Positions 15,856 to 61,053 of a stretch of 64,000 nucleotides of DNA are shown here, one piece after another. Below the pieces are notes generated by a model. It made no database searches and was not told where the DNA came from. It was given only the letters and a program-made list of their open reading frames with translations. Where the stretch lies: the NCBI GenBank assembly GCA_010093705.1, contig MU006092.1:130623-194622 (forward strand). Direction: 5' to 3'. Position 1 is the stretch's first letter, and the number at the start of each line of letters is the position of its first letter. This stretch comes from Patellaria atrata CBS 101060. Taxonomy: Eukaryota. The position numbers and the translations under genes are program-made.

Positions 15856-17499
15856 ATGCAACTCGTCACTTCTCTGTCCGTTGCCTTGTTCGCGGCTTCG
15901 GCCACCGCAGCCGGCATCAAGCGCGGCGAATACTACGACAGCTATAACAGCACGACCTCCGCTTTACCAGAATACCCAAGCACCACCTCCGGTCTACCAG
16001 AGTACCCGAGCACGAGCACATCGTGTGACAGCGAGACAACGCCAGCACCGACAACTCCATATGGCACCGCTCCCTATCCATCTTACTATGCCTCTGAGAG
16101 CACCCCTATGTACCCAGGTGACTACACCACTGTGTACACCTCTGTTCTCACTTATACGGTTGGGTACGGTGAATCTACCTCGGTTTACACCACCACCGTT
16201 GAGCACACCTCAACCATTCACCTGACGGAGGTAAGATTCCATGTTAAAACCAAGCAAAGAAGTTGTACTGATTTTTGAACCAGACCGTCTACGCTACTGC
16301 TCCTTATGAGACTGCGAGCGTTGTTGACTATGAGGGCGAGACCACGACAATTCACAAGACAAAGACGAGCACCAAGACTGTAACCGTCTATGACTCTGCT
16401 TCCCCAGCTCCCGAAATCCCAGTAGTCACCGCTGCTCATGTTGGTGGTGAAGAGGTGTGCGTTGCTCCGGTTACCGTTACCGTAACTGAATCTGAGTACG
16501 TCACAGTGGTAAGTTGCATTATTTTGGAATCATCATAATGGAAACCTAAGAATTTCACAGACTGTCGATTATGAAGTCACTCCTGTTGCTTATCCCCCAA
16601 CACATGAGTACCCGGAGACCACTCCGTCTATGGAATACCCAGATACCACCCCATCTATGGAATATCCAGAGACTACCCCTATGGAATACCCAGAGACAAC
16701 GCCTTCCGTAGAGTACCCAGAGACTACACCCTCTGTTGAGTACCCGGAAACTACTCCGTATGTTGAGTACCCGGAGACAACTCCTTCCGTCGAGTACCCA
16801 GAAACTACTCCCTCGGTTGAGTACCCGGTTGAAAGCTCCAGCTCCGTGGTCATCATCTACAGCTCATACGTTGTGACACCGATTCCCGCCTCAAGCACAA
16901 CCCCTGAGGCTGAGTACCCCACCACTGAGGTTCCATCTTACACCACCGTACCCAGCTACGGCGAGAGCTCAACCACCCCATGCCCGACTACCTTGATCAC
17001 TCTTACCAAGTCTGAGTCGTACCCAAGCTACCCATCAAGCACTGAGCCAACTCCTGAAGAGCCATCTGAGACTCCTTATGAGCCATACCCATCCAGCACC
17101 TCCGGTACTCCCGAGGAGCCCACCCCTTACCCAACAACCTCTGAGACTCCTTATGAGCCAACTCCCTACCCCTCCAGCACTACACCCGTTGATGAGGAGC
17201 CCACCCCTTATCCGACAACCTCGGAGACTCCTTATGAGCCAACTCCATACCCCTCCAGCACTACACCCGTTGATGAGGAGCCTACTCCTTATCCCTCCAG
17301 CACCACACCTGCTCCCGAGGAGCCTACTGGTTATGAGTCATTTACATATGCTCCAGAAACAACCCCTGAGCCAACCCCATCCACTTCAACGAGTTTGACA
17401 TATATCTACTTCTCCTCGCCATCTGTTTCTACCCCTGCCCCAGAGCAGCCAAGCACAACCGAGGCCCCTTATACTCCCCCTGCCTATACTCCGTACTAA
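15856..17499 (+). CDS. Secreted Pro/Thr/Tyr/Glu-rich repetitive cell-surface (mucin/extensin-like) protein
   Basis: Signal peptide MQLVTSLSVALFAASATA followed by KR. Introns at about 16230-16283 and 16509-16560. Contains tandem peptide repeats. Confidence 0.85.
16605..16830 (+). repeat. Coding tandem repeat with a 27-nt unit (EYPETTPS[M/V]), about 8-9 copies
   Basis: Direct reading of the sequence and its translation. Confidence 0.9.
17050..17330 (+). repeat. Coding tandem repeat with an approximately 81-nt unit (EEPTPYPTTSETPYEPTPYPSSTTPVD)
   Basis: Near-identical nucleotide blocks at about 17113-17193 and 17194-17274, plus partial copies. Confidence 0.85.
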
Positions 17500-39739: not shown

Positions 39740-40283
39740 GATCGTGCTTTGGTTGAGTAGTTAGAAGTTTGCGAGTTTACTTTGAAAAAGATCAAAGAAA
39801 AGACCTTGAGAATGATGGAGTGGAGGGATGTGTTGGTGATGAAAGAGGAGATTGTTCGGAGTTGGGGTCTCTTCTCTCTGTCTGTTTGGTGCCCTTCTAA
39901 GTCAATTCTGGCGGTGTTACGTGCACCAATCAACTGCACGCTTCACCCAGTTGATTAACCTCACAGTCACAGACCTCGACCACCAAGAGTCTAAGTACTC
40001 ATCTACACATAATAGGGAAATAATAGGTACAATTTTATACATTAAATCTGTTTGGTGAAGATCTAGTATCCTACAAGTACGACTAGGTGGTTGTAACGCC
40101 TTTTCAGTAGGTAAAAGCAGTAACTTGAAAGAAAGACGCCGCATGCATTCTCATTTGAGAGCTCCTGTTGACGGGACCCAGCGCATGTCTCTGGATACTA
40201 TACCCTGTTGATCCGATACTCTGCATGAATGTAGATGGACAATCCGATTATACCATCAACAACGCTGTCCGTTAACCCGTGAC

Positions 40284-43200
40284 TTACAGGTACAAGGACT
40301 GCGCAGCAACCAAATCCCTCCTTACCTTGTTCAAGGTCTCTTCAAACTTCTGGACCAAGATCTCGTTACCCATGGCTTTAGCTCCTTGGGCCATCTGTCT
40401 GATCAACTCTTCCAGTCGTCTGAATATCCGAATCAAGTTACCTTCGTAAACATCTGTCATTTTACTGTGCGAGATGTCAATGTTAGGCTGCAAGATTTAC
40501 TCAAAGTAAACTTACCATATTTCGGCAAACGACGCCCCCTTGGTCCAAGCATAAACAACTTCCATCAGTTCAAACTTGAAACTTGCAAGGTAATCGTCTT
40601 CATTCAAGGCGAGTTTACATTCTCGGGAGATTTTCGCTACTACGCGGACCTGAGCCTGGATCTCTCTGTATGCTTTGGAAAGCTCCTCTTTCAGCAATGG
40701 ATAGTCGTGACTCTTTTCCTCGAATACGAAGACGCTTAAGCAGGCAGCACATTGCTCAGGTGATAGTTCGTTGAAGAAACCGTTGAACAAAAGTTCGCTT
40801 AGAACGAGCTCATCGCCGGAGCTAATCTCGCACGCAACACGAGCTTTAATTTTGACAACTTCTGCCTCGTCAATGAAGTCTAGCCGCCGTAGTACGCGTT
40901 TACGACACTTCAGCTCATCCAGTTGCATGACCGACAGCGCTTGGTTAATCTCCTTCTTTACCTCTTTAATCTTATTACTCAAATCAACCTTTCTAGCATA
41001 CTGGTCGTAGAGCGCCGGCAACCTGGGTGAGTTGTGGAGAGGGTTTGAAAGAAGTTTTGATTCCAGGACTTCAATCTTCCGCAGCAATTTTTTGAAAGAA
41101 TCATCAGTGATGTGCATGTTCTCGATCGGATCAAGCACAGCAATGCCATCAGGAAATCGTTTCTTAACTTCCTCAAGGTTTTTGCGGACCTTGTTCCGCT
41201 CATCTGCTGACTTGAGGTCCGCAGGTAGGAAAAGTCTCAGATGGCCGATTGAGTCAATACATGAGAGGAACACTGGTACAACCTCCATTTTGCCCTTCTC
41301 CCCATTTTCGCAGGGTCGAACTCCTTCAGGAAGGCCTTCAAAAGACTTCGGAGAAAAGGTAGTATCGCTCGCAACTTGCAACAGCACATCGATGACATAT
41401 GATTCTTGTGGTTTCATTTCTGATGCGGTTTGTCCCTTAGCCGGTTTACGAAGCGTGAAGGTCACCACCGCACCCCACCCAAAGTCGTGCTCTTTAAACT
41501 TGACTTTAACTAAACGCCCAGATTGCATAAATTGTATGCAATAGTTAGGGTGGGTAATGACGTCTTTCATGTCTTTCGTGTAAGTGTCCAGCTGGTGACG
41601 GAGGTCGTAATATTCCTTAACAGTAGCCTCATCGGGAATCTCAATATCGGCTCTCTCATCTTCCAGTTCTCTTTGGCGTTTCTCGAGGCCAGATACGCTT
41701 GCTGTATTTTGGAACTGGTAGAAGCACCGCTCCAGCATGAACTCGGGCGATATTCCCTCTACGCGTATAAGGTTCAGAACCATATTGTAGCCAAGATGGA
41801 AGGCCGAGTTGAGGTTGTCCTGCTGCCCACGGACTATGTCCTTCGCAACAGTAGGGTCCATCTGTTCGTCGACCATCATGATCACAATACCGCGGTCATC
41901 GAGGCCTCTTCGTCCTGCACGACCAGACATCTGGATGAACTCTGACGCTGAGAGCCACCGTTGAGATATACCATCGAATTTCCTCACACTTGTAAATACT
42001 ACCGTCTTTGCAGGCATATTGAGACCTATTGAAAAGGTTTCTGTAGCAAAAAGAACCTTGATCAAACCTTCTTGGAACAGAATTTCTATAGTCTCTTTCA
42101 GAATTGGTAGAAGGCCGGAGTGATGGACACCAATACCCCTCCTTAAAAGCGGTAGGATATGCTGGATTTGTGGTAGAGACCGATCTTCCTCGGAAAGAGA
42201 TTCCACCGCGCTCTCGAAAACTTTTCCCACCATAGCCTTTTCTGACTCGTCGTTGAAAGCCATCTGGCTCATCTTTAGGGCATAATCCTCACACTCCCGC
42301 TTACTGAAGCTGAAAACGATAACGGGGTTATAGTGCTTAATCATAATCATTTTGATGATTTTGTAGATATCGCTTGGAGGATCTCTATTACCCCCCCTGT
42401 TCGGCTTCTTGTCTTTTCCTTTCCCCTTCCTCTTAGCCATGGCATCTGCTGGGTCATCACCTTGTTTCTCTTTTATAACTGCCATAGATTTTTGGAAGTT
42501 CTCTTCCCGAAAATTGCCCTTCTCGTCTACTATGAGATGAATGCCATCCGCCCCTGCTGGGAAGAAATAGTGCTGCAGAGGAGTGGGCCTGAAATCTGTG
42601 TAAACTACATGGCATGGCTGATTGTGAGTCTTCGTAATCCACTCCGCAAATTGCATAGCGTTTGGTATCGTTGCGGAGAGGAAGACATAGCGCACTTTAT
42701 CGGGAAGTAATATGATAGTCTCTTCCCAAACGACACCACGAACTATTCGCGTGAGCAAAAGTTTGGGAAGTACGAGGGGTTTAACTTACTCTTGTCTCGC
42801 AAATAGTGTACTTCATCAAAGACCACCCATGCCACTTCGCGCATTATCTCAGAGCCTCTGTATAACATAGACCGTAAGATCTCTGTTGTCATTACCAAGC
42901 AGGTCGCGGTGGGGTTGATGGTTACATCTCCAGTCATCAAGCCTACATCGCCAAACTCTGCAGTGAACTCTCTATATTTCTGGTTACTCAAGGCCTTGAT
43001 CGGACTTGTGTATATGACTCTCTGGTTGTTCTTCAAACATTGTGCGATAGCATACTCGGCAACGACGGTCTTGCCTGCACTAGTATGTGCGGATACTAGT
43101 ACGCTCTCATTTCGCTCGATCGATGCAACTGAGACTTCCTGGAAGGGATCTAACTTGAACGGCCATGTTCGGGCTGGGTGTTCTGGCGGCTTGTGCGCCG

Positions 43201-43606
43201 AAATTGGCACGTATTCGTAGTCTGGAGGTAACGCGACCTGATGGCGAACTTGATGGGAGAGTATCATCGTGGAGCCATCTTTCTGTGGCTGCAAACCTGC
43301 GGATTGCGCAACTTCACGCGATTGTTCGGTCTCGAAGGTGTCTGTGACCACAGGGTCTGCTTCAACATCTCGTCGTTGTCTCTTTGAACCATGTCCTTCT
43401 GCACCATTGTGTTGCACCGAGATATCATCGCCCGCCATGAGCACATCACTCTGGGATTTATCTCCAACCTCAACGTCATCCCCAGATTTCACATCACCAT
43501 TTGCCTGTCTCTTCTTGCTCTTTTTGGGAGGTTTTGAGGCTTTTGACGATCCTTGCTCATTAGGAGCCTTAGAGTTATCTTCAAAAACGTCGAATAGCTC
43601 GTCCAT
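40284..43606 (-). CDS. MTR4: ATP-dependent RNA helicase Mtr4/Dob1
   Basis: [29 protein letters not shown] and [10 protein letters not shown] motifs, an arch/KOW insert and terminal AAQSLYL. Two introns. Confidence 0.97.
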
Positions 43607-43885
43607 GGTGGAAATAATTGCTGCCAGGCGTGGAGTAGAATTGTTGGCTCAAGTTTGTATCGATGATTCGATCGACTCTTAGGAAAAATGTTCCAACGAT
43701 CGAAAAGGTGATGCCAAGAACGGAAACCTCCGCGGCTCTGAGCTCGTCCGCAATGCTTCCTTTCACATCACCTCATCCCAATTGAACACCCAACTGATCT
43801 TCTCTCCGACAAAAATTGAGTAAACAAAGTCATTCAATGTAATATTCTTAACCATAACGCATGATTTCATTGCTAACAGCTATAG

Positions 43886-44232
43886 ATGCTTTCCCGCCCC
43901 GTGCTTAAGGTTTCGGCCAACACTACCCTAATCGCCCGTCGCGGATTCCAAACCTCCCGCGTTCAGATGTCAAGTCCATATCATTATCCTGAAGGGCCAT
44001 ACAGCAACATTCCCTTCAATCCGAAGACTAGGTTCTTTGCTCTGCGATACTGGGGATTTATGGGTGTGTATAGTATCCAATCTTGGTGTGATGGAAAGCT
44101 GACCACTTTTATAGCTACCGGATTCCTAGCACCATTCGGGATCGCGGGTATGTACTCAATTCTGCCAAACAGACGTATTCGCCTTTTAATTAATCTTCAC
44201 TAGTCTGGCAAACCAAGAAGAACGCGCCCTAA
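43886..44232 (+). CDS. COX8: Cytochrome c oxidase subunit VIIc (yeast Cox8)
   Basis: Mitochondrial presequence followed by HYPEGPYSNIPF and, after splicing two short introns, ATGFLAPFGIAVWQTKK. Confidence 0.9.
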
Positions 44233-44692
44233 ATGTTACGGCTCTTCAGGAGAATCTCAATTATGCGTCGAATTTGAGAATATGCAAACGAACAAAGGGC
44301 GCACTGTATATAGAGCTAGCCTTGTACAATTCATCTGAAAACTTGAAAACATGCGACCAACGTTCTATTACCGTTTCAATCGCAACAAGCGATGAGGAAA
44401 AGTTGCATTGATATCGGTCTCTACGTGGCCGAATCAGATCTAATTCACTTCGAATGATCTCACCATTCAACGTGACTTTACCCTACCCGACAGAGTAGCT
44501 AAACATTCAAACAGCTATTCTAGTAACTCAATACAGATATCAATCATAGAGGTCCTTGGTAATATCGGCGTTGGTCAATATTTACTCGTATATATTCCAA
44601 CCCGATCATTACATTGAACATACATAAATTTTCTTATAGATGTAAGTTTGGGCCGAACTCTTCCCAATGGCCATTTTACTAGTGGTAGCAAC

Positions 44693-46069
44693 TCAGGTAA
44701 TACGCCACCTCCGGGAATGGCCTAGATGATCCCTTAGTGTAACCTTTAGCTGAATCCCATAATGTCGTAAAGTCCTCGATACTACCTCAGGTGGTTCCAA
44801 TTCAACTAACGGAAGTTTAAATGCTCGCCCAATGCTTTGGCATCGTTCTCTAACGTTAACACTACTGAGTACCGGTATATTCTCAGTCTTAAAGATAGCT
44901 AGTTCGACGATCCACGACCATTTATATGCAATATCATGGTATTTTGAATTCAGCACAGCGGTTTGAGTTGGTGCGTCATGGAACAAGAAACTAGTATACC
45001 AGTCGAAGACCACCTAAATGCAATTAACAGGTGAGATCTTCCGACAAAGATACGCTCTTACTGTAAACGATTTAATCGTTGGTGGCAAAAGTCTGCATAC
45101 ACCCTCCCTATGATCCGAGGGAATTGATGGATCGAACATCAAACTGGACGCTACCTCGACTTTCTGCAATGACAGAAAGTCTCTGAGATCCAGTCTGGAT
45201 CCATCGTGATTAACCCATCTGTAGTTATCCCCCAACAGGCACAAATGTCTCAGGCTATGTCGGATCGGTGTCAACGTTGCTGTAACACCTGCGGGCGATA
45301 ATGAGTTCATAAGGCCCGATATTGAGGAATACGGATTTGACCCCATACGACCCGGCACCCTGCAGAACAGTTCCTGCAATTTTCCCGTGTGAGCAAGGAT
45401 CTCGCCTAATATTGGTTCCGGGATGATCGAGTTGGTGAGATCTAAGCTTCTAATGGGAGATGTCTTAATGGGATCAATTGCGATGTTTGAAGATACCAGA
45501 CTACGGAACTGGCCCACAGTGATATGGTTCAGTTCAGGAAGTATCATGAATTGGTACAAGTCTTCCGGGGAGAATATTTCAGTCAGTAAATGGACTGCTT
45601 TTAACCGCATCGTGGGACATGATTTCAGAAACGTGGATCGAATGCACGCAGGTCCAAATTGGGAGAATCGCAGTTCTCGAATGTTATATGCTCTTGAGAG
45701 AAAGGTGTCTATCAATTTCAGGATTGTGGTAGTATCATACGATCCCCATTGGAGATGTACTTCACGTACGTGCCGACGAAGCTCTGGGCTTTCATCGAGA
45801 GTGCGTACGAATTGATGGAAAGAACTTGAATGAGGCGCATCGAGACAGAAATCAACAGTGCGAACAATGAGTTCTCGACTTAGTTGATAATGATGGTGTG
45901 ATACAAGTGCCAGCTGATACAGCTGCTTTCGGTCCCCTATGAAGTAAGACAGAGTTTCATAAAGGACATCATCATTTAAGTAAACTTGTCTCCCCATATT
46001 GCCTTTTGAATGGTTTAGAATCCTCCAGATCTCTTCGAGAATCATGATATCTATATGCTGCACCATCAT
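44693..46069 (-). CDS. F-box-like / LRR-like hypothetical protein
   Basis: N-terminal LNDDVLYETLSYF..LYQLALVS is F-box-like, followed by repeated LxxLxL segments. An intron at 45014-45061 joins ORF 44693-45013. The start codon is uncertain. Confidence 0.65.
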
Positions 46070-47028
46070 GGTATTAAGTGTTTAGATGTGATGTATACTG
46101 TACATGTCGGTAATTAGGAAAAACTATAACTGCCGAACACCATATTAGCTCCTCCTGCAGACATTATACAGAAATACTTGAAAACCGAGGTACGCTTTCA
46201 AGGCTTTTAGATATTCAGGATCATTGTGTTATGCGGTCTGCACCTTGGCTGGTAGAGTACGATAGATTGAAAGGAATCTGATGAACTACTTTGCCTTCGC
46301 GTTCTGATAATTTCAGTCCTACTCCGTACACGCAGCACGACCCCTTGAAATAGAGGTATTTTCTTCCAAAGTTATCATGAAATGTACTGTACGTCTACTT
46401 TGAACTACAACTGGGTGGAATCACAAGATTATAAGTTTTATAAGGAACTCCAAAGCCATCCACATTACCTGGGATGGAGAGAGATGTCCCACTTTCTATG
46501 ATGAACCTAATCAATTTTCTAGGAGGTTTTGAAAGAAACATCAAGTACGCTGGCATAACTGGTGGAAGAGAGGAGGAGGAAGCGTTGGTTACGGAGTCCA
46601 TGTCGGGTGCCCATTATTGAAGATGGAAGAGCAATACTCCGTACCACCTCAGAACATGATTTCGAAAGCCCCCTTAACCAGCAGAAGTCATAAATTCGAA
46701 TAGATGCAAGACGGCATGAAACACAAAGTTCTGATTCCTAATAAATACTTGACCTCAATTGCAAGTAGCCATCAAGAAATCATGTTTATATATGCAATGA
46801 GATGATTAAACGACAAAACGGTTGGGTACTGGTATCATCTGCCCTAAGGTATGGATGAGGTGGAGCTATGACTGGGAGCTTGGGCCATCGATACCACCAG
46901 TACCATCTTCCCACCTCGCTCACTACTTTGAGGCAGTGGAGTACTTAAATCCATCCTCTCCCGCGAACTTTCCTCGGCCTCATTTTCTTGCTTTCTATTC
47001 TTAGTCTGTTTATCTAGAGATATTCAGC

Positions 47029-49167
47029 ATGAAGAATAGACCCCAGGAACCGAAGAACGATAACCCTCCCACTTCAACTGAGAAGCCAACTTCCCCGCCC
47101 TCCGTGAATACTTCGAGCCAGGATACCACTGCAAACCCTCCTGTGAAAAAGCTGGAATATCCAGACGATGGAGAGATGAGCAAATCATGTGTCACTGCAG
47201 AGGCCTATGACTACTTGTTACGCCTTAGGAAGCTTGAAACTGCAGTCTCAGAGCTAAAAATCGTAAAAGGAGCACAATATAGTGAGCTTAGGAAGGTCGA
47301 GTCTCAAGTAGAACCAATGAGGAAGAATATCGAGAAATCCGAACTGCGAACAAGGCTAGTCTATCAAAGAATGCTTATTCTCACGAACAAACTCAACGAG
47401 AGGGTGGATAGGATGGGACAGGATTTCAAAGCCCTTGAGAGAATCAGACGGGATAATGAAGACCACAAATCAAAGATGAGAGACATGACGGAGCTAATCT
47501 CAAAGTGGATTGAGATTGTTGAAGTAGTTGAACAGAAAAATCGGGAATCAGCACTCACTGCGGTGCAACCCCACGAGATCGGTTTCTACAACCCAAGGAA
47601 AGTAGAAGATGATCCTTCCGGAATAACCCAGATCTCCTGTGGCACTAACATAGAAACTGAGTACCATGATGTGAATCTATTCATTGCTCGACTGGAAGAT
47701 TTAGCTACAGCAAAACGGCCGATTCGCTGCATCCAAGACTGTCTACGAGGTCAAGCCCTTATGTGGTATATGAGCGAACTTGACTCTCTGGGAAGAGGGG
47801 ACCTTCGCAACTCATCTCTTGCTCATTGGTGTGAAGTACTCCGTAAAAGATTTGAAATGAAACCCCATGAAGCTCAACGTCTTTTCGAGGAATGCAAATA
47901 TACCATCCAGGATGGGGCTGAGAAGAAGGATATCATGGTACATGTCAACAGAGCATTGCGGTTCATAAGGGTGTTCGAACTGGAGCAAAAGAAGTGGGTC
48001 TCTTGGGTCTCTAAGAGCTTGAACGACATACCGAATTGGTTTGCTAAGGGCCCGTCCATATTCGAGTCCCTATCAAGTCTACTAATATACCTTCGTGAAA
48101 ACGAGGCATGGCTCCACGACCATTGCGATTATCTGCACAATGCGATGAAACTCTCGGCAAATATGAAGGAGATCAGACCATCATCCAGCGATTCTCCCTC
48201 CCTGCCGTTCTGGGAGTATCCAGATCCCCTCTCGCCACGCTCACGCAAGTCCACAGAGGGGGAAACCAAACCTATTATAGGGTATCTGAAGTCCTCCGCG
48301 TCCCGAGATATGAGTGCACCCGTCTATCCCACGTTTGCGCCAGCTCTGAATCGACGAAGCAGAGAATTTGGGAAGCCGTCGCCCCTCGGAATCCGTAGTG
48401 TTTATAACAATGCTCCCACCGTCCCAGGAGCGTGCTGGGCACAAACCTGGTCGCAGCTGCCGACGTACTCCTCGCCTTTCGCCGCTTCGAAGCCTACGAG
48501 CTCTTCATTACCATATACTCCAATGAATTATACCTTACCCTCCCCAACAACTCTTCAATCAGCTCAGACTCCATGCATTGATCCATTGAAATACGCACCA
48601 ATTCCAGCCGCCACCAGCACACAATCTATTAATTCACAGGGATGTACTGGGAATTCTTGGATGGAGCTTCCTAAGACATCAACGGCTAATACAGCAGCTG
48701 CCAATCTAACAGATCCTATTACCACTGGCCCAGCGTCAACACTGCTGGGACGGACTTCCATGCACCGATTCATAGATCAAGCCGTCATTAACACGCAGTT
48801 TGAAGCTGAACTCGCCCAAATCGACTTAAGAAGGAGGAAGCGCGAGCAAGAGGACGCGGAGAGGGAGGTGCTGACCAGACAGACTGAGAACGCGAAGGTG
48901 TATAAGATCGTGAAGAGGAAGTCCAAGGGTATGGGTAAGACGGAGGGGTTAGAGGCGGTAAACTTTTCGGGGATATCCTTGAAAGATGGGGAGCAGAAAA
49001 TGCCAAGGCAGCCGGAAAGGCATCAAGAGGAGCAAGAGACGACATGCTCCATGACATTCTCTAGGAAGGAGAATGAGAAAGTAAATGAGGAGAAGCAGAG
49101 GTCTGTGGATGAAAATACGAAGAAGGCTCAGAATGTGGTGGCGAAAGTGAACGGGAATAAGAATTGA
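47029..49167 (+). CDS. Intronless protein with an N-terminal coiled coil and a Ty3/gypsy Gag capsid-like domain (candidate domesticated gag)
   Basis: Central EIGFYNP..YHDVNLFIARLEDLA..CLRGQALMWYMSEL..WCEVLRKRF..KYTIQD resembles fungal retrotransposon Gag as recalled. No pol or LTR is visible. Confidence 0.7.
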   Translation: MKNRPQEPKNDNPPTSTEKPTSPPSVNTSSQDTTANPPVKKLEYPDDGEMSKSCVTAEAYDYLLRLRKLETAVSELKIVKGAQYSELRKVESQVEPMRKNIEKSELRTRLVYQRMLILTNKLNERVDRMGQDFKALERIRRDNEDHKSKMRDMTELISKWIEIVEVVEQKNRESALTAVQPHEIGFYNPRKVEDDPSGITQISCGTNIETEYHDVNLFIARLEDLATAKRPIRCIQDCLRGQALMWYMSELDSLGRGDLRNSSLAHWCEVLRKRFEMKPHEAQRLFEECKYTIQDGAEKKDIMVHVNRALRFIRVFELEQKKWVSWVSKSLNDIPNWFAKGPSIFESLSSLLIYLRENEAWLHDHCDYLHNAMKLSANMKEIRPSSSDSPSLPFWEYPDPLSPRSRKSTEGETKPIIGYLKSSASRDMSAPVYPTFAPALNRRSREFGKPSPLGIRSVYNNAPTVPGACWAQTWSQLPTYSSPFAASKPTSSSLPYTPMNYTLPSPTTLQSAQTPCIDPLKYAPIPAATSTQSINSQGCTGNSWMELPKTSTANTAAANLTDPITTGPASTLLGRTSMHRFIDQAVINTQFEAELAQIDLRRRKREQEDAEREVLTRQTENAKVYKIVKRKSKGMGKTEGLEAVNFSGISLKDGEQKMPRQPERHQEEQETTCSMTFSRKENEKVNEEKQRSVDENTKKAQNVVAKVNGNKN

Positions 49168-49410
49168 GGATAAGAGGAAGGGTATGCTTGAATCCTGTGA
49201 GCATGTTATGTAATACTCAATGTCGATTTGTCTTTATTGATATTGGTAATGTCTAGTTTACATATTTACTATGAAGGTTCTCAATTGGAGGGGAAGGCAA
49301 AGGTAAAGAAAAAGGGGTATCATAATTGTAATGAAAGTAATGCTACATCACCTTCAACCTTTCTCCATTCTCAGGCGTCTTAATTTAGCTTTTTTTGCTC
49401 TAACTTTAGT

Positions 49411-50649
49411 TTATCCTTCCTTTCTCTTCCCTTCCACGTCCCTCATTACCCTCAACACATCCCCCACCAAATACAAACTGCCCGCAGTAACCAACGGCCC
49501 TTCCCTACCTACGGCACATGCAACCTCCAGCGCGGCCCTCATTTCATCCATGGCCCTAACCTCCGCCAACCCCCTCACCGTTTCCTCAGCAATCTGCGCC
49601 AGCTCCTCTGCCTTCGTCGCCTGTACCCACGGCATCCCATCTACGGGTCCAAAGGCCGTTGCCACTAACCTATCACCAGGCTGCAAAAGTACAGATAGTA
49701 GACCGGGAAGGTCTTTCCCCTGAGTTACGGCTAGGAGCCATGTTACGCTCCCGTCTGGGGAAAGGGGACGGAGATGAGTGGAGACGTGAGATGAGAGGGC
49801 GGCGGCGGATTGAGGGTTATGTGCTCCATCGAGGAGAACTGAAGCCTTACGGCCCGTCAAAGTCGTGAGAGATTGAGAGGAGAGGCGGCCCGGAAATGTG
49901 GGGAGCTGCGCTGGGATAGCGGGCAGAGAAATGGGTTCCGGGCTGTCAAGGCGAGGGAGCGCAAGAGAAAGCGCGATATACGCCGTCGCGAGATTAGTAA
50001 CCTGATGCTCCGGCATTCCACTCGGAATCGTAAACTTCGGCGGGAGCGTCGGATAATGTAACGTCACTCCCTCGACCTTAGCCGCAGCTTCCTTAATCGC
50101 GGAAAGAGCGTCGGGATCATTAGTCGGATCTACCACACACGGCACCCCAGGCTTCATGATTCCCGCTTTCTCGATTGCGATGGCGTTAAGTGTATCCCCG
50201 AGAAAAGCTTGATGATCCAACCCAATCTTCGCAATCACAGTGACAAGCGGGTTGGTGAGGATATTCGTCGCATCCAACCTCCCCCCCATGCCCACCTCCA
50301 CAACACCCACTTCGATTCCTTCCCCTGAAAAAAACTCAAAGGCTGTCGCTGTCAACACTTCAAACTCGGATGCTCCTATCCTCTCAACCTCATTACGGTG
50401 GAGTACGCGAGACTCGGCTTCGCGAAAGGCAGTGTAGGGGATGGGAGTGTTGTTGATAGATATGCAGTCCCAGCGGTCGATCAGATGCGGAGAGGTGAAA
50501 CGGCCGTGGCGTATAGGGGTGTTGGAGAGGAGGGAGGAGATATAACTGCAGATGCTGCCTTTACCATTGGTGCCGGCAATGTGGATGGCGCGCCAGGGGA
50601 GGGGACGTGGGAGGAGGAGTGAGATGCGGTTGAGGCCGAGTTCGATCAT
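49411..50649 (-). CDS. FOL3: Dihydrofolate synthetase / folylpolyglutamate synthase family
   Basis: MIELGLNRI, HIAGTNGKGS, FTSPHLIDRWDCI, EVGMGGRLDATN, LDGAHN and GSLYLVG motifs. Confidence 0.93.
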   Translation of the reverse strand: MIELGLNRISLLLPRPLPWRAIHIAGTNGKGSICSYISSLLSNTPIRHGRFTSPHLIDRWDCISINNTPIPYTAFREAESRVLHRNEVERIGASEFEVLTATAFEFFSGEGIEVGVVEVGMGGRLDATNILTNPLVTVIAKIGLDHQAFLGDTLNAIAIEKAGIMKPGVPCVVDPTNDPDALSAIKEAAAKVEGVTLHYPTLPPKFTIPSGMPEHQVTNLATAYIALSLALPRLDSPEPISLPAIPAQLPTFPGRLSSQSLTTLTGRKASVLLDGAHNPQSAAALSSHVSTHLRPLSPDGSVTWLLAVTQGKDLPGLLSVLLQPGDRLVATAFGPVDGMPWVQATKAEELAQIAEETVRGLAEVRAMDEMRAALEVACAVGREGPLVTAGSLYLVGDVLRVMRDVEGKRKEG

Positions 50650-51383
50650 TTCAAGGGGTTCATTTCTCAGAGAGATGATACAATACTACTAATATCTTTA
50701 CGAAGGTTAGGTTTTGACGTAGTACTTCCTGTAGAACGAAGGTAGGACCGCAGTATGATCGCACCTCAGTACATAGAAGCCGGGGCCAAATCCGCGTTCG
50801 GAGGTTTTACTAGAACTGGAGTGACATCATCGTCAGCTTAACAGTCATATAGTGATGATAATAGCTAAGGTATGTAAGCAGAGTTTTCTGCTGTTGCTAT
50901 GCAGACTTGTTACTGTATACAAATAAGGTAGTGTGTTGTCGTTTTGTCCTTGATTGAGTCATCGGTTCCATTTGCTGTCGGTCCATTTAATAAGAATTAT
51001 TTTAACCTTTGGCGTTATCGGGAGTGGAGACATGATTTGCATATCCCGTCGCCTTCTTAGACTATTACTCCCGGCCAGAATTCTGATTGGGCAGGAACAA
51101 CAAACACGAACCCCTTGGACGTCGCTTCTCGAATTAGACTGGTAGGCACCACTGGGGCAGGCACTAACGGTAACCAGATCTCGCCTCACCCTCAACCTCG
51201 TCGTTCCTGTCCAGAGGCCAGCCTCTCCCCTCAAAATCTCAAATCGCGACAACACTCGTCCGAATATTGCAAATATTCAACATCTCCCCTCATCAACCCC
51301 ATCTCCATAAAATCTCCCCTCACTTCGCTCTTTTCTTTTTCTTTTCATTGTTTACTCTTTTAACTTCTTGCGACTCCTTGAAA

Positions 51384-53328
51384 ATGGGTCTTCCGTAAGT
51401 CCAAATTCCTCTCTCGCGCTTTCCCACGGACCTCTCTCAGCCGCTATGTTTGCCTGGCGCGTGCGGTCTGCGACAACGTCAAAGTCGACTACTATACTAA
51501 CAGAAGTCTTAATATAGAGTATGGCGCGCTCCTTCTCCAGTTGAAACGAAAACTGCGGCAAAAAACGATGCAACTGCTGGCTCACGCTCACCTATTCGGC
51601 GCCGCCGATCACCGAACGAGCCTCTTCCGCGACGTAGTAATGCCGCTCGCTACGTCTTTCCCGTTGATACAAACAGCAACGGCCATGATATAGAGACATC
51701 TCGCGAGGGACGCAGTTCACGCCGCGAACGCGTGGATCATGCACGACGTATGATCAGCGTCCGCGAGCGGATACTGAACGATGCGGCTGCCCGCGGAAAT
51801 AGCGTACCTGAGCGCCAACCTAGCATGCACGAAGACAACATGAGGCCCGGGTTGTATCGAAATATACGACTTCATTCGCAGTCGCGTGATCGCGAAGGTG
51901 AGTTCTTCCTACCGGCACCCTTTTCCTCAATAACGGGGCATCATGGCACTCTGGGCCATATCCGTAAATTTCCCCCTGACACTAACTTTATCAGGGAGCT
52001 CTCCACGTCGCAATGATCAACTACCACCGTATACTACAAATTTTGCTCCCGCACGGTACGCACCACCTCGCCCTCTCGAACCACTCGTCGAATGGACCCC
52101 TCGTCCTATCTTATCCAACCAACAGACTTCTGCGTCCCCACGATCTTTCTTGACTGAAGGTGACAACGCAGCTAGTCAACTCGAGATCGACGAGACCTAT
52201 GCAGATAGCGAGACAGCAGCAGTAGCAGAATTCCCTCCCCTACGCCGTATGGGCCACCGTACTATCGTTGATGGGCCCCTCCCTTCGAGTTCTTTAAGGG
52301 AGACCTGGAATGCCAATGTTGACGGTCTTGGAGATCGTGACAGAAGTTTTAGCCCCGATGCAGAGTACAATACCTGGGAGACGATGCTCACTACTATCGC
52401 ACCGGACACTCATTTGCCTAGCGCAGATTCTTCATTTACCTCCGCAGCGGCCAGCGCGAGTTTCTCAAGGTCCAATTCCGCGAACTCGAATAGGGGAAGC
52501 AATCAATCACGGGCTAGCATTACTTCCAATTCAGCTGGTAGTTCAAGGACACATATCACCGTGCCTTCCGAAAATGCTGGCGACCCAGCTTGCCCTTGGA
52601 GCCCATCATCTGAAGGGACCTCCGACACAGAGGCCGAGGACGACACCACCCCACGAATCGGGTTTCCCGCATCTCGCCATGGCACCGGTTCTCAGCGCGA
52701 CCGCGCTCGTGATCGCGCCAGGTTTGCCGAGCGCCTTCGCCTGAATAGGCCAGAGTCCACCCCGTATCAACCGCGTTCGAATTCAGAAATTGCAGAACAA
52801 CGGAGGAGGATAGATGCCAGAATGCAACAGACCAGACAAGGTCAGAGCGACCTAACTGATGACCGCTCGGTACAACCTACTCCAAGAGATACTCTTAGTA
52901 GCGGTGGTTTTACCTACACCGATGTTGCTCGTCCCCGACGCGCCAGCAGGGAACTCATCTGGCGCGGTAATGATCTCACGGAGCTACCTAGCCCAACGAC
53001 TGTCAATAACAATGGCGATGATGACCGCAATCATGTGCAACCAACCCGACCGGCCGCGCGCGCTAATTTGCCCTGGATGCAGAATGATACTGTGGCCGTA
53101 CCGCATCCGAACCATCTCCATAGGAGCAGCAATACAGAATCTCTCCACCGCGGGGTTCCTGCCACTAGCGACGCCGCTCTCGGTACTGATGTACGCGCCT
53201 TCGAGTCCGGGACGACTGGTGAAGTGGATTACGAACGCGTGGGACGGCTTCTTCGGGAGTTGAGCAGCAGGGCTGATATTCCAGCAGACTTTTGGAGAAC
53301 AGCTGGACTAACAAGAATGGGTGGATAG
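51384..53328 (+). CDS. Low-complexity Arg/Ser-rich hypothetical protein
   Basis: Manual splice: MGLP, then an intron, then VWRAPSP..RSPIRRR, with a second intron at about 51898-51994. Short ordered motifs include DGLGDRDRSFSP, WETMLTTIAPD and DIPADFWRTAGL. Confidence 0.7.
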
Positions 53329-55568
53329 ACATCTACTTTTTAGATGTTACCAGGAATGGACTGGAGCGACACGGTGTTAGACGATCCAAAGGCTTTACAA
53401 TGATAGTCAGAGGCGCGATAAAAGGTTTTACGGGCTTGGAGGTTCCTGTTTTTGGTTTCTTATATCGGTGCGCCATCGATACGTTTGCTCAGTATTCTTT
53501 TCTATATATCTCTATATATCTCTGTTCGGACTTGAAGAGTCAGTTGCAGAGGTTTTGTCTCCCTAAACTGGGAGTCTGGTTTCTCAAGATGAGAAAAACG
53601 GGGGTATTTTGGTGAAAAGACCTAAACTTATTCCCTTAGGGTAGGAGGCTTTACGATTGATATCAAGCTCTGGTTATTTACAAGTATCTGTACATTTAGC
53701 TATTTTCTTTCAGATTTAGGTTAGGGCAAAAGTTAGCCTAGGAGTTTATGATCTTGCGAACCAGATCCTGGAAACCGTTTTGCTTCTTGTGATAATGCAT
53801 CTTTGTCATTTATAAGGTAGGTGTTCATTTGAAATATCGATGGTTTTGTGTCGGGGTGAGGTTATATCTAAGGTATATCCCGGTAGGTAGAGGGTTCTTC
53901 TCGTTTTCTCTACAGTAAGCTATCATTCCCATGTCGTTCTCTCTATTCAATATGCAGTATTGCTGGAAGAGCAAATATGTGGCATTCCACATAGGCATGC
54001 ACGTCCCTGCTGAGGTCTTCGTTGGTATGAATTCCATTGTAATCTTGCATATGTCGTGTTTAAGAATACTTTGCTTTGGTGGAGTGAACTACATGTCTGA
54101 AGAAGTAGGCATAGCTCTAAAAGCTAGGTTGTTCCTCGCGCCATGATCCTCATGATTGTCTTGTAATGGGCCCTCGTCATTCTCTATTATATGGACGATT
54201 TGACTACATCCTCGACTCGGGATATTCCATCATTCTATCCTCGTAAAGCTCGTTGGTGCCAAAGCGGCTAACGCCAGGGTTCCCGGGCAAAGCATAATCG
54301 CCTACTACAAGTACTGACCTCCTTTTTTTAGGGTTGAACCTGAACACAAAGTCCTAAGTCCTGCCCTCTGATTCCCCATACCGTAGTTATCATGACATGC
54401 TGTCTCTTCCCGTCTCAACATCGGTTTCCCTTCGGCAACAGCATTTACCACCTTGGTCGCACTCTCCTCACCCCACGGGCACCCGCTAAGGTGTTTGGTG
54501 GATGTAAAAGAAGCTGCGGTTCCGATGCGAACGGAGTTTATTATGGCCTTGCTGCCGTTCCTGACAATGAACTTGGCGATGGGAAGACTACGAATTATGG
54601 GGGTCCGATTTGGGCGTGGGCTATGGGGCTACGATTGCTTTTATGATGGCGAGTTAAGGAAGCTTTGAGGGACGTTGGTTGCCTGAAAGGCTGGATATCG
54701 TTTTATAACAATCCTTGTTGATACTGTATCCCATTGTCAATTGCTCTGTTGTTTTACCTAATGTTGACTCCGTCCCAGTTGAGACTGCAAGGTATTGAGC
54801 TCCGTCTTTGCTCCTTCTAAAAGAAGATTGAAGTTTGGGGGATAGGGAAACTGTACAATCACTCTTTTTCAAACTTGATCTTCGTAGAGATGTCGATACA
54901 TGAAAGTATCTCAATGATAAATCTTCAGTGGTCTCTTGAATATAATCCGAGCTGGACCTCATACTGGAGCAAGTTTTCCAGTAATTGTGAATTTGTGATG
55001 TTGGCTTCGGTGGCTGAAGCCAAGCTATCAGAGCTCAAGATTGTGGGGAAAACTGACAGCCTGTGACGTAATGGATCGTGAAACAGTTGCTCAACACTCC
55101 AGAACACTTTGAACGGACGGAAATCAGATGGCAAAATAGAAAAAACGGAGGTCCCAAAATATCAGTTAGAAAGTTATTTGAGATCTGCGCTTATCCTTAA
55201 GAGGTAAGGTTACGTCGAGGAAAGAACGATGACGATGGTTTAGGAAGCTATGGCTTTGTTCAAAGTTGTTGTGGCTTCAGTAATTTTGATTGGTTGAATT
55301 CCAAGATTGTGTGAGGAATCTCCTAGAAGAAGGAAGGCGCGGTCAAGACACGACAAGGTGCAGGTCATGTTACCGGTCATGGGACAAACGTCATACTTTG
55401 CTACAGCCGAAACGCAGCTTCTTCAAAAGGGACAAGGTACGCTTCCCATACTTTCTCCTCCCTCTTCCTTTCAACCATCAATCAACAATAAACAACCCCA
55501 AATCCATTGCCATTGCACCTCACATCCATCCAAACTCATCAAAAAAAGTCTCCAATCACATCAACAAA

Positions 55569-56364
55569 ATGGCCACTCTTCACTGTACGTATATTTTGAT
55601 GCTTTTCATTCGACGAGCTGGCCAATCCAAACACTACCTTGTGGCATTCAAAAACAACATCGACCCCTCAACTTCATCTTCATCGAAACCATCAATTCGA
55701 TTTTCCTACGTGGATGCAATCATCTCTACCATCGCCTTCCATCAATTCTTATCTTTTCGCAAAAATTTCCCATCCCACTTATGAATACCGCCAAACCAGC
55801 TCCCAAACAACACTCAAGTCAGTTCGAACTAACTTTCTACTTTAGACCTTCCCCCAGTTAAACCATCCGCCATTGCCCTTGGCACAGTCTTCAACCACGT
55901 CGCCTCTCTAGCCGTCCTATCACCAGTCTTCGGTGAGACTTACCGCAAGGCCCAAGCTGCGAACAGCAACGAGGAGTTCTTCAAGTCAAAAGAGGCCGCA
56001 TCCGCCGCATCTGCTTGGGGATCGTCGCTTTTCGGTTCCGCTATCCAGGCTTACGGTGTCGGTGCTCTCATCAACGCTACTGGAACTCTCTCCTACAAGG
56101 GCGCTGCTTACCTCGGATCTCTCATCTTCTTCGCTAGCTCCGCACCATCTGTAAGTACCATCAAATTTCGAATATGAGACTCAAACGTGCCTTGTTCTAT
56201 CAATAGAATACTAATCTGCTGTTCGATAGATCGTCTCCCAAGTCGTCACCGAGAAGCGCCCACTCGACACCATTGCCGTCGGAGCCCTCGCTCGTGTCTT
56301 CGAGACCGTTGGCTTGAGCTTATTCCTCACATACTGGGGAACCCGCACCAACCCATTCGACTAA
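55569..56364 (+). CDS. Small multi-pass membrane protein (DUF1761-like), missed by the ORF track
   Basis: Introns at 55585-55845 and about 56151-56230 give MATLHYLPPVKPSAIALGTVFNH..GALINATGTLSYKGAAYLG..LTYWGTRTNPFD with strongly C-ending codons. Confidence 0.8.
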
Positions 56365-59264: not shown

Positions 59265-61053
59265 ATGCCGCTTTTACGGCGATATTTAACATGTCATTAC
59301 TGCGGTGCGAAGTCAGGTCAGAAATACTCAAGCGGACTGCGAAACTGGCAATGTAGTTCATGCGACGCGGCCAACTATCTAGATGAGGTGCGTATACAAT
59401 CCCCATATCCAACCATAGTCTTATAGACTCGACTTCTTCAAAACTCAAGCTAATGTCGAATTACAGCAAGGGCAAATTACCGATCCTCCAACTGCCCCAG
59501 AAGGACCAAATCAACCTGTGCGGTACGCATCGTTCACCTCGCGCCCCACCGCTCCCAACTCCATCGTCTTCTGCGACGCCTGTGTCAGCAACCAGCACTT
59601 CTACGCGCAGACCCTAGCAAACTATCTCCCTGATACCGACCATCCCCAATATCATGAGTACGTTAAAAAGCTCCCTGAGTTCAAGCAAAACCTCGAAAAG
59701 CGCTATCCGCAATACTGTCGCGAATGTGCAGAGAAGGCCGACAAGGTTATCAAGAACGCGAACTACTTGGCGAAGACTGATAACCTGAGGCTGAATATTG
59801 AAAGGACGAGGCAAAATGGACCTGTAACAGCTCCGTATGATCCTGGTTTTCGTGAATTCATGGTCAGACTTGCGGGATTGCTGTGGTGGATCAGCGTCCT
59901 CGGAGAATTCGTGTGGCATGCGTTCGCCTTCGCACTCGTAGATGAGGTGCAGGAGGAAGCGTCTAATATCACCATATATCTATCCCAGTGCGCAATTCGT
60001 GGCCTTAAGACAGGTGGCGCAAATCCTGCCTGCTTCAGGTACTGGACTGAACTGATGCCTACCCTCCTCTATATCAGTGCCCTAACCTTCTGGTGGAATA
60101 ACAAACTGCGCGGAAAGTTGCAACGTCCAAATGCCCGTCTCTCAGGGATGCGTGAAAACATTTTATTACAGCTCATCGTCCTCGGTATTCGAGTGTTCAT
60201 CTTCCTCGGGTTCTGGGACACAGACAGCCTATCTTCACCCTCGATGAGAGCCCAGTTTAAGGGCGCACATGCAGCAACAGCTTTGATCTTAACCATGTTC
60301 CTGCTGTCTGCCCATCGCGTGGTCAAGCTCTCATATCGCCAGGTCAATTTCAAGGAGCCCACCACCACCCTACTCTCCTCATTTCCCGCGTCCCAGACCA
60401 ATGTGTCTACACCTGTGCGCCGTACGCCCCATCTCCCGAGCAACAGTACACCATTCCCTATACACAAACTCTCATCCCCGTCTACGGACGGGTTTCTCGA
60501 TCCGCCGTCGCCCGCCGAATCTACAGCGTCGACTGTGATTGAAGACTGGAGTTTCGCAGGCACGTCTACACAAGAGGAGCAAGACTCGATGGACTGGACT
60601 CCTACCCGTCCCCAGTACGACTTCAATCCTTCTGTTCCAGCATCAGCATCACCTGTACAGCATACAAATACCGTAGGTCTGAATGGTGGTACGGACAGAA
60701 TCAACAACGCTCCCTTCCCCTCACCATTCACGGGTAGCCTCCCCCGAGCTCCCATACCGCCAGCGCACAAGCTGCGGAACCCCCTTCTGAACCCGGCCCC
60801 TCCAAAGCCCACCCAGCCGCATACTGTACAGTTTGTCAAGCCCGTAATCGTACAGAACCCGTTCAGTACGGTGAAGGAGGCCCTCCGTACAGATTTTCCC
60901 CTCGCTCAAGGGGGGTTGAAAATGCGGGAGTCTGCACCAGAAACTGGGCTTGAGGAGCAGTTTGGCAGTTTTTTCAGTCTTGCGGAGGGTAGTGATGCTG
61001 TACCGCAAGATGAAGAGACGAAAGGGGGGTGGTTGAGCCGGTTATTTGGTTAA
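59265..61053 (+). CDS. IMA1: Integral inner nuclear membrane protein Ima1
   Basis: Exon 1 encodes LTCHYCG..WQCSSCDAANYLDE. After an intron at about 59388-59467 come FCDACVSNQ, LANYLPD and LEKRYPQYCREC, then TM segments and MDWTPT. Confidence 0.9.

Follow-up and report, generated by a model that had tools for sequence, protein, structure and literature searches.

Gene and locus

We analyzed a 64,000-nucleotide stretch of contig MU006092.1 from the fungus Patellaria atrata CBS 101060 (the 64-kb window, within which all positions are numbered). Our subject is an open reading frame (ORF) at positions 47029 to 49167 on the + strand, whose product we call P0001. The ORF starts with ATG, uses the standard code, and encodes 712 amino acids and a stop codon without an intron. 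P0001 is very probably derived from the Gag protein of a retrotransposon. What stands at this site is a complete gag gene only, from a chromovirus-type Ty3/gypsy family whose Gag proteins carry no zinc knuckle, and it lies among fungal housekeeping genes.

The initial annotation of this DNA, made from the letters alone, described an intact, intronless 712-residue ORF with a four-part layout, and both ORF calling and a full-length AlphaFold model agree with that description. It also placed a convergent FOL3 gene about 240 bp beyond the stop codon. The intergenic gap measures 243 bp (49168 to 49410, from the stop of the gag ORF to the stop of the neighboring ORF) and, being so short, offers no space for pol or for a long terminal repeat (LTR) on the 3' side. 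The convergent neighbor (49411-50649, - strand) has a Pfam match to Mur_ligase_M above the cut-off (E 6.2e-6) and one to Mur_ligase_C just below it (E 2.7e-5), which is consistent with an FPGS/FOL3-type gene.

On the 5' side, an intergenic region of 959 bp (46070 to 47028; GC 0.42; no LTR-like repeat) is shared with a divergent ORF of 351 amino acids (45014-46069, - strand). The label of F-box protein that this ORF had received is not confirmed, as Pfam finds no F-box family in it at E≤1; its sole Pfam match is a sub-threshold insect-allergen repeat (E 0.022). Farther upstream, the ORF at 43886-44203 matches COX7C (E 3.9e-21). Overall, the window is an ordinary housekeeping region of a filamentous fungus, with genes for a nucleoporin, ELP1, a P450, an amino-acid permease, a fungal rhodopsin-domain protein, Cut8, an MTR4-type helicase, Alg14 and an NIF phosphatase in addition to the COX7C and FPGS-like genes.

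Protein layout

The full-length AlphaFold2 model of P0001 was built from a 57-row alignment and has a mean predicted local distance difference test score (pLDDT) of 65.9. Its N-terminus (residues 1-55; 47029 to 47193, this and all following segments on the + strand) consists of 42% Pro/Ser/Thr and is modeled as disordered (pLDDT <50). Residues 57-176 (47197 to 47556) form three long helices (57-76, 84-140 and 144-176; pLDDT 65-83) with a heptad-like pattern, and a crude heptad scan marks residues 63-162. We regard this segment as a putative coiled-coil oligomerization region. Compared as a whole with the protein sequences of the PDB, P0001 gave weak matches only, to the Mdv1 coiled coil and to M protein (E 0.31-0.62).

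The compact domain that follows (residues 181-380) is modeled with pLDDT mostly >90 and can be divided into two lobes of a capsid (CA) domain. The N-lobe (residues 181-276; 47569 to 47856) contains the motif IGFYNP and a beta-hairpin (199-212), followed by helices that carry CLRGQALMWYMSEL and WCEVLRKRF. The C-lobe (residues 277-380; 47857 to 48168) includes KYTIQD and comprises helices 279-288, 293-297, 302-314, 320-330, 348-357 and 359-380. The ranges first assigned to the heptad-rich helix (about 47200-47550) and to the domain (about 47575-48120) agree with these modeled boundaries to within about 50 bp.

Beyond the CA domain lies a disordered Pro/Ser/Thr-rich linker (residues 389-578; 48193 to 48762; pLDDT <50), with 39% Pro/Ser/Thr and a net charge of +8 when both are counted over residues 401-585. 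No homologue of the linker was found, the phmmer matches described below including none outside the CA region. A long charged helix (residues 579-633; 48763 to 48927; pLDDT ~90) bears the basic clusters RRRKR (601) and KRK (629) and is a candidate nucleic-acid-binding segment or nuclear localization signal standing in place of a zinc-knuckle nucleocapsid. The protein ends with a second charged helix (residues 679-707; 49063 to 49149; pLDDT 73-80).

Two further observations concern these segments. The first part of the CA domain contains a near-invariant motif, G-F-[FY]-[DN]-P (within IGFYNP; 47581-47595, residues 185-189), in which G185 and P189 are each conserved in 98% of 57 sequences, and this motif sits just before the CA beta-hairpin. 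In retroviruses, the CA beta-hairpin forms after cleavage at an N-terminal proline. By analogy, the motif could be the maturation site of the family, one that a Gag without pol could not itself cut. Separately, in sequencing run X2, the contig graph breaks into 31-60-bp pieces at 48839-48929, inside the region coding for the C-terminal helix. Minor variants with one difference occur there at a depth of 16-24 against ~400 for the main form; they are explained either by a variant present at low frequency or by an error that recurs in the reads.

Sequence homology to Gag

A phmmer search over 1.84 billion protein representatives returned 281 proteins at E≤1e-3, of which 7 reach E≤1e-10; both figures include P0001 itself. 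All matches fall on P0001 residues ~175-320, with some reaching ~370-420. A Pfam scan covered all 149 of the matches listed: 137 have no Pfam family at E≤1e-3, and 5 are long Ty3/gypsy polyproteins. Three of these (P0076, P0101 and P0105) contain RVT_1, RT_RNaseH, Integrase_H2C2 and SH3_Tf2-1, and P0076 and P0101 additionally have a chromodomain; the other two (P0033 and P0062) contain RVT_1 and RNase H only. Judged by these Pfam assignments, the domain set is that of chromovirus-type Ty3/gypsy elements. In all five polyproteins the domain shared with P0001 is N-terminal, within residues 49-360 and far upstream of the reverse transcriptase (RT), where Gag lies. In the reverse direction, tblastn of the five polyproteins against the 64-kb window gave matches on 47437-47985 with E values of 1e-12 to 1e-14.

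A family profile made without P0001 scores the protein at 135 bits (E 3e-41), next to 133 bits for the Gag-Pol protein P0033; P0001 ranks 114th of the 121 proteins left out of profile building. Of 57 aligned sequences, 70% or more share a residue at 32 columns, and P0001 carries this consensus residue at 27 of them; four of its five departures are conservative. The count is somewhat biased, the family having been gathered by similarity to P0001. The motifs that had first suggested a Gag protein (IGFYNP, WCEVLRKRF, KYTIQD and others) fall on conserved family columns. The Ty3/gypsy Gag reading based on them was a good lead without amounting to a formal match, since the Pfam model Retrotrans_gag is silent. 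In a feature-based comparison, the neighbors of P0001 in ESM Atlas are Retrotrans_gag/Ty3_capsid clusters (score 0.92), and 18 of 30 share that set; we treat this as a lead only.

Taken together, these results support the compact domain of P0001 as a Ty3/gypsy-type (chromovirus) Gag capsid, homologous to the N-terminal region of the polyproteins. Pfam finds no family in P0001 at E≤1, neither Retrotrans_gag (PF03732) nor Ty3_capsid (PF19259), and PF03732 is touched by only 1 of 51 family members (E 0.021). The available text of PMC3248453 describes fungal gag genes as escaping Pfam profiles, so the miss concerns the Pfam models and not membership of the superfamily. We infer that the P0001 family is a Gag lineage missed by current profiles. 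The profile search recovered 25 family members in clusters of only 1-5 member sequences, and in the literature we found no description of this Gag family. A dedicated profile of this large family (281 proteins, query included) would improve the annotation of fungal LTR elements whether or not the gene at this locus is used.

Some relatives carry the CA domain in unusual company: P0005 has two CA domains and a chromodomain, P0114 joins a BIR to a CA domain, P0069 joins CA to a fungal transcription-factor domain, and P0064 and P0089 combine CA with C2H2 fingers. These odd fusions may be real host-transposon fusions or gene-model chimeras.

Predicted fold of the capsid domain

We next consider the fold. 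A domain model of residues 165-400, predicted with 50 relatives, has a mean pLDDT of 88.7 and a predicted template modeling score of 0.78, and shows a beta-hairpin followed by two helical lobes. When the model was compared with 48,161 chains using VIA-align, an aligner independent of Foldseek, ranks 1-22 were all retroelement Gag or CA proteins, and the first unrelated protein appeared at rank 23. The highest Z scores were those of the dArc2 C-lobe (Z 8.0, root-mean-square deviation 2.5, 81 of 84 residues), the C-terminal domain (CTD) of PEG10 CA (Z 8.0, 84 of 85 residues) and the Copia capsid (Z 8.0, 147 residues aligned). dArc1 followed (Z 7.8; its capsid, Z 7.0 with 152 residues aligned), together with the Arc C-lobe (Z 7.4), murine leukemia virus CA (Z 6.8), the PNMA2 capsid (Z 6.5, 153 residues aligned), the Drt2 CA-CTD (9rxy; Z 6.4, 82 residues) and the MOAP1 CTD (Z 5.9). 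Other chains among the top 22 were CA proteins of Rous sarcoma virus, human endogenous retrovirus K, equine infectious anemia virus, feline immunodeficiency virus and foamy virus.

The two-lobe alignments cover 143-153 residues, and the lobes also match separately. The C-lobe matches (dArc2, PEG10, Arc and Drt2) lie on model residues ~111-203 (residues 275-367 of P0001), and the Arc N-lobe (4x3h; Z 5.5) aligns over 70 residues with model residues 37-113 (residues 201-277). These comparisons support a two-lobed, all-helical CA fold, with an N-terminal domain and a CTD, for the modeled domain. A dimer prediction for two copies of the CA domain, run without using the alignment, gave no verdict (score 0.00).

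Foldseek gave a more guarded picture. Its best two PDB rows were the PNMA2 capsid and dArc1, but at E 0.67 and 1.1 they are consistent leads only, and neither PDB nor BFVD yielded any match at E≤1e-3. The best BFVD row was ORF1 of Penicillium waksmanii metavirus 1 (E 0.045, probability 0.97), a virus on which our literature search found nothing specific; caulimovirid coat proteins came next, and these rows too are leads.

Could P0001 then be an unrelated helical protein, its likeness to CA reflecting a common helical arrangement? We consider this reading close to refuted. The Foldseek result would fit it, as would the VIA-align Z scores, which at ≤8.0 lie individually in the tool's range for common arrangements (below ~8, or ~13 for helical bundles). 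The silence of Pfam points the same way, as does a search of PDB sequences with the family profile, which found no Gag and returned only a chitinase (E 0.87). Against it stand the homology, at E values of 1e-12 to 1e-14, to five polyproteins with RT and RNase H (three with integrase, two with a chromodomain), and the occupation of the top 22 of 48,161 ranks by retroelement capsids, each lobe matching separately. The leads from ESM Atlas to Retrotrans_gag and from BFVD to a metavirus ORF1 are independent of these. We give weight to the fold because the top ranks are uniform, because the lobes match separately and, most of all, because sequence homology ties P0001 to Gag-Pol proteins.

Layout and missing zinc knuckle as family traits

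Of 171 proteins collected, 145 span 150 or more profile positions and were used to calculate a tree; the other 26 were left out. P0001 is placed as the sister of P0002 (support 0.91), within a clade of seven that also contains P0128, P0064, P0083, P0112 and P0131, none of which has a Pfam pol domain. P0128 and P0112 resemble P0001 in having an N-terminal heptad-rich helix, a CA domain and a Pro-rich or RG-rich basic tail. P0083 runs past its RG-rich tail into 'GDTGSS', which we take to be a retropepsin-type active-site motif, and this suggests that P0083 is a truncated Gag-protease. Four of the five Gag-Pol proteins resemble P0001 in that their CA envelope begins at ~137-177, and the phmmer alignments of P0001 to P0033 begin at residue 137.

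A CCHC-like knuckle (regular expression C..C.{3,5}H.{3,5}C) was found in 0 of 150 proteins, among them P0001 and the five Gag-Pol members, and the tails after CA in the family are basic or RG-rich where a knuckle would be. The statement in the initial annotation that P0001 has no CCHC knuckle is thus correct. Since the whole family is without one, its absence is not a loss in P0001. Compared across these relatives, the arrangement of coiled coil, CA domain and basic tail and the absence of a knuckle are ancestral to this Gag family. The 'Arc-like architecture' reported earlier must be read in this light: the layout is present, but it is the native layout of the Gag family (as in P0128, P0112 and P0083) and not a special convergence. 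We therefore rejected convergence on Arc of the coiled coil and CA layout, which is common to element-derived relatives.

Absence of the rest of the element

The gag ORF is accompanied by no other part of a retrotransposon. Outside the CA domain, all tblastn matches of the five Gag-Pol relatives to the 64-kb window had E>1, so no pol remnants were detected there; the protease motif D[ST]G is absent from P0001; and retroelement Pfam domains were found in 0 of the 22 other long ORFs of the window. No direct or inverted repeats of at least 25 bp occur in 40000-56000, and comparison of the ORF flanks gave no LTR-like similarity, only 11-17-bp chance matches (E≥0.97). The early claim that protease, RT, integrase and LTRs are all missing is borne out by these searches. 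With flanking LTRs and pol absent, this is not a complete LTR retrotransposon. Three of the window's ORFs, all on the + strand (51943-53328, 59860-61053 and 16630-17499; 461, 397 and 289 amino acids), have no Pfam family at E≤1e-3, and the first of them is Ser/Pro/Arg-rich and looks largely disordered.

We also looked for further copies. There is no second copy of the ORF DNA within the window. Run X1, the read contigs of the source organism, was read whole (265,941 records) at a likeness of at least 80%. Six of its contigs fall on 43000-52000 and only one covers the ORF, extending from 43000 to 49435 with 0 differences and joining the ORF to the upstream host genes. No second copy of the ORF at ≥80% identity was seen among these contigs, although contigs show presence and not absence. 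The identical entry for P0001 in the protein collection forms a 90% cluster with 1 member on 1 contig. The ORF is gag-only, without the rest of the element, and on the contig evidence apparently single copy, which agrees with one of the criteria of Wang & Han 2021 for co-opted gag genes.

In runs X3 and X4, which are labeled as other organisms, the ORF is matched at 100% identity (47175-47585 and 48967-49213) by contigs of 174-247 bp with a depth of 2-3x. Their own genomes are covered at ~470-495x, and their own contigs at ≥80% match only the MTR4-like gene (43002-43606). We rejected these scraps as orthologues; 100% identity at 2-3x, against ~470-495x, looks like cross-sample carry-over.

These findings bear on whether the locus holds a non-autonomous, gag-only LTR element that is still mobile and is moved in trans by pol from elsewhere in the genome. 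Its Gag is complete, with the N-terminal region, CA and basic tail, and Gag-Pol relatives exist that could supply the enzymes. The absence of direct repeats and of flank similarity, the 243-bp gap to the neighbor's stop, and the lack of a second copy in run X1 all speak against mobility, as does the count of tRNA genes, the targets of Ty3-type elements, which is 0 in the window. We consider such an element very unlikely.

Possible retention by the host

Having lost every other part, does the gag gene persist because the host uses it? Several observations are in favor of retention. In substitution-only simulations of 20,000 trials at each level, the frame survived 3,099 times at 2% divergence, 219 times at 5%, 2 times at 10% and 0 times at 20%. 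Because random substitution at 2% already closes most frames (16,901 of 20,000 trials), the 712-codon open frame is not due to chance; insertions and deletions would lower its survival further. Even the 312-codon low-complexity tail is still open, and all parts of the element other than gag are gone without a trace. P0001 also stands far apart within its family, its nearest relative being 32% identical (third lowest of 145, median 58%, in the family alignment), and it keeps the consensus at 27 of the 32 conserved columns. The GC content of the ORF is in line with that of its neighbors, giving it a host-like base composition, and there is no signature of repeat-induced point mutation (RIP): TpA/ApT is 0.64 and (CpA+TpG)/(ApC+GpT) is 1.32, values that fall within the span of the host genes or outside it. 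Codon usage does not discriminate, as wrong frames fit the neighbors about as well and the bias in this genome is too weak.

The same locus could instead be a neutral relic with no function for the host: deletions would have removed the LTRs and pol of one chromovirus insertion, and its gag frame would so far have escaped mutation. A young relic could well be intact, as the 3,099 open frames at 2% divergence illustrate, and the family holds active-looking Gag-Pol elements. Fungal LTR elements, moreover, decay and turn over fast, with gag as their least conserved part, according to the available text of PMC3248453. A young relic should, however, have close relatives in the same genome, and none lies on the ORF at ≥80% in the run X1 contigs. 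A relic would also imply a selective erosion of everything except a perfectly intact gag, and it sits poorly with the open low-complexity tail, the host-like base composition and the absence of RIP. We judge it rather unlikely, if by some way the strongest of the alternatives.

Retention also has to contend with a number of results that tell against it, and these favor the relic where they favor either. A word-indexed search of 5.8 billion clusters, with the whole protein and with residues 160-400, recovered only the query itself; a single-domain search of metagenome contigs gave 0 relatives; and the phmmer matches include no close relative. Because no orthologue was found, conservation across species, the usual criterion for co-option, is not shown. 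Among the sequencing runs listed as containing the ORF, none is an RNA run, and there is thus no sign of expression. The clade-mate P0083, with its protease-like motif, looks like a piece of a real element, and the clade is accordingly not purely 'domesticated'. Finally, repeat-masked annotation would hide transposon copies from protein databases, so that these under-sample them.

Weighing both sides, we lean modestly toward the full explanation, in which the host has retained this Gag-derived gene as a working gene. The host capture proposed in the initial annotation is plausible but unproven.

Possible function of a retained Gag

If the gene is used, P0001 would self-associate through its coiled coil and its CA lobes, and the basic helix 579-633 could take over the nucleic-acid binding of the missing zinc knuckle. 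P0001 might then assemble capsid-like particles, as do Arc, PEG10 and PNMA2. Because there is no protease in cis, P0001 would be expected to stay uncleaved and 'immature' unless a resident element cleaves it.

Alternatively, P0001 may enter the particles that related elements build from their own Gag and so poison the lattice, in the manner of Drt2, p22 and Fv1. As for the yeast factors, such co-assembly is the leading candidate mechanism. The available text of PMC13709905 describes Drt2 and p22/p18 in yeast and Fv1 in mice as blocking particle formation by co-assembly with Gag. Since poisoning of the Drt2 type works at 91.5% identity to the target Gag (PMC13709905, same text), restriction by P0001 would require that a chromovirus resident in the genome have a CA far more similar to it than that of any relative found, and no target of this kind is known.

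Comparison with known systems

The closest known counterparts of P0001 are the chromovirus Gag regions of P0076, P0101, P0105, P0062 and P0033. They share with it a homologous CA domain, an N-terminal extension of similar length in four of the five, the absence of a CCHC knuckle and a long disordered or basic tail after CA. P0001 differs from these polyproteins in having no protease, RT, RNase H, integrase, chromodomain or LTRs, in being only 22-27% identical to the five (trimmed CA alignment), and in being apparently single copy among housekeeping genes.

Arc, dArc1 and dArc2 are animal genes of Ty3/gypsy origin and, like P0001, are stand-alone genes with a two-lobed CA. In mammalian Arc, too, a coiled-coil region at the N-terminus precedes CA. 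P0001 would be an independent capture in a fungus, with an identity of 9-16% in the structural alignments, and the profile search of PDB sequences finds no Arc. Arc itself is conserved throughout the tetrapods and forms capsids that carry RNA. The mammalian Gag-derived proteins of the RTL/PNMA group (PEG10, PNMA2 and MOAP1) likewise share the CA fold, PNMA2 being the top Foldseek match. They belong to another host kingdom and have documented orthologues and functions, and no sequence-level relationship between them and P0001 was detected.

Among fungal cases, Drt2 and p22/p18 of Saccharomyces cerevisiae, which restrict Ty1, are also gag-only ORFs at a fixed chromosomal place with the CA-CTD fold. 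Drt2 is a Ty1/Copia-derived fragment of 169 amino acids, comprising the CA-CTD only and 91.5% identical to its target Gag (PMC13709905, available text); P0001, in contrast, is a Ty3/gypsy-derived, full-length Gag of 712 amino acids with no known close target. Crtg12-Crtg14 (Wang & Han 2021, PMC8321522) are single-copy gag-only fungal genes as well, and the available text of that study defines them by synteny above the family level together with evidence of selection and expression. Unlike the Ty3/gypsy-derived P0001, Crtg12 and Crtg13 come from Ty1/Copia and Crtg14 from Bel-Pao. The same text, which reports a systematic deep screen, gives these three gag co-options for fungi, two from Ty1/Copia, one from Bel-Pao and none from Ty3/gypsy. 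A kingdom-wide fungal screen for transposon co-option worked from Pfam domains (PMC10799480, available text) and would miss the P0001 family, since Pfam does not detect it.

Against this background, we offer as a tentative and still doubtful possibility that P0001 is the first example reported from a fungus of the co-option of a Ty3/gypsy (chromovirus) gag: a host-kept, full-length, knuckle-less Gag (coiled coil, two-lobed CA and basic helix) from a Pfam-invisible family, which would form Arc-like RNA capsids or poison the lattices of resident chromoviruses in the way of Drt2 and Fv1. New cell biology has repeatedly arisen from gag-only genes, with Arc, PEG10 and PNMA as animal examples and Drt2 as one from yeast. 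If this gene is used, capsid exaptation, or the restriction of transposons by Gag outside yeast, could be studied in a tractable fungal system. Gag-only host genes are a known kind, to which P0001 adds a Ty3/gypsy-derived, full-length, knuckle-less case in a filamentous fungus and a candidate for host use.

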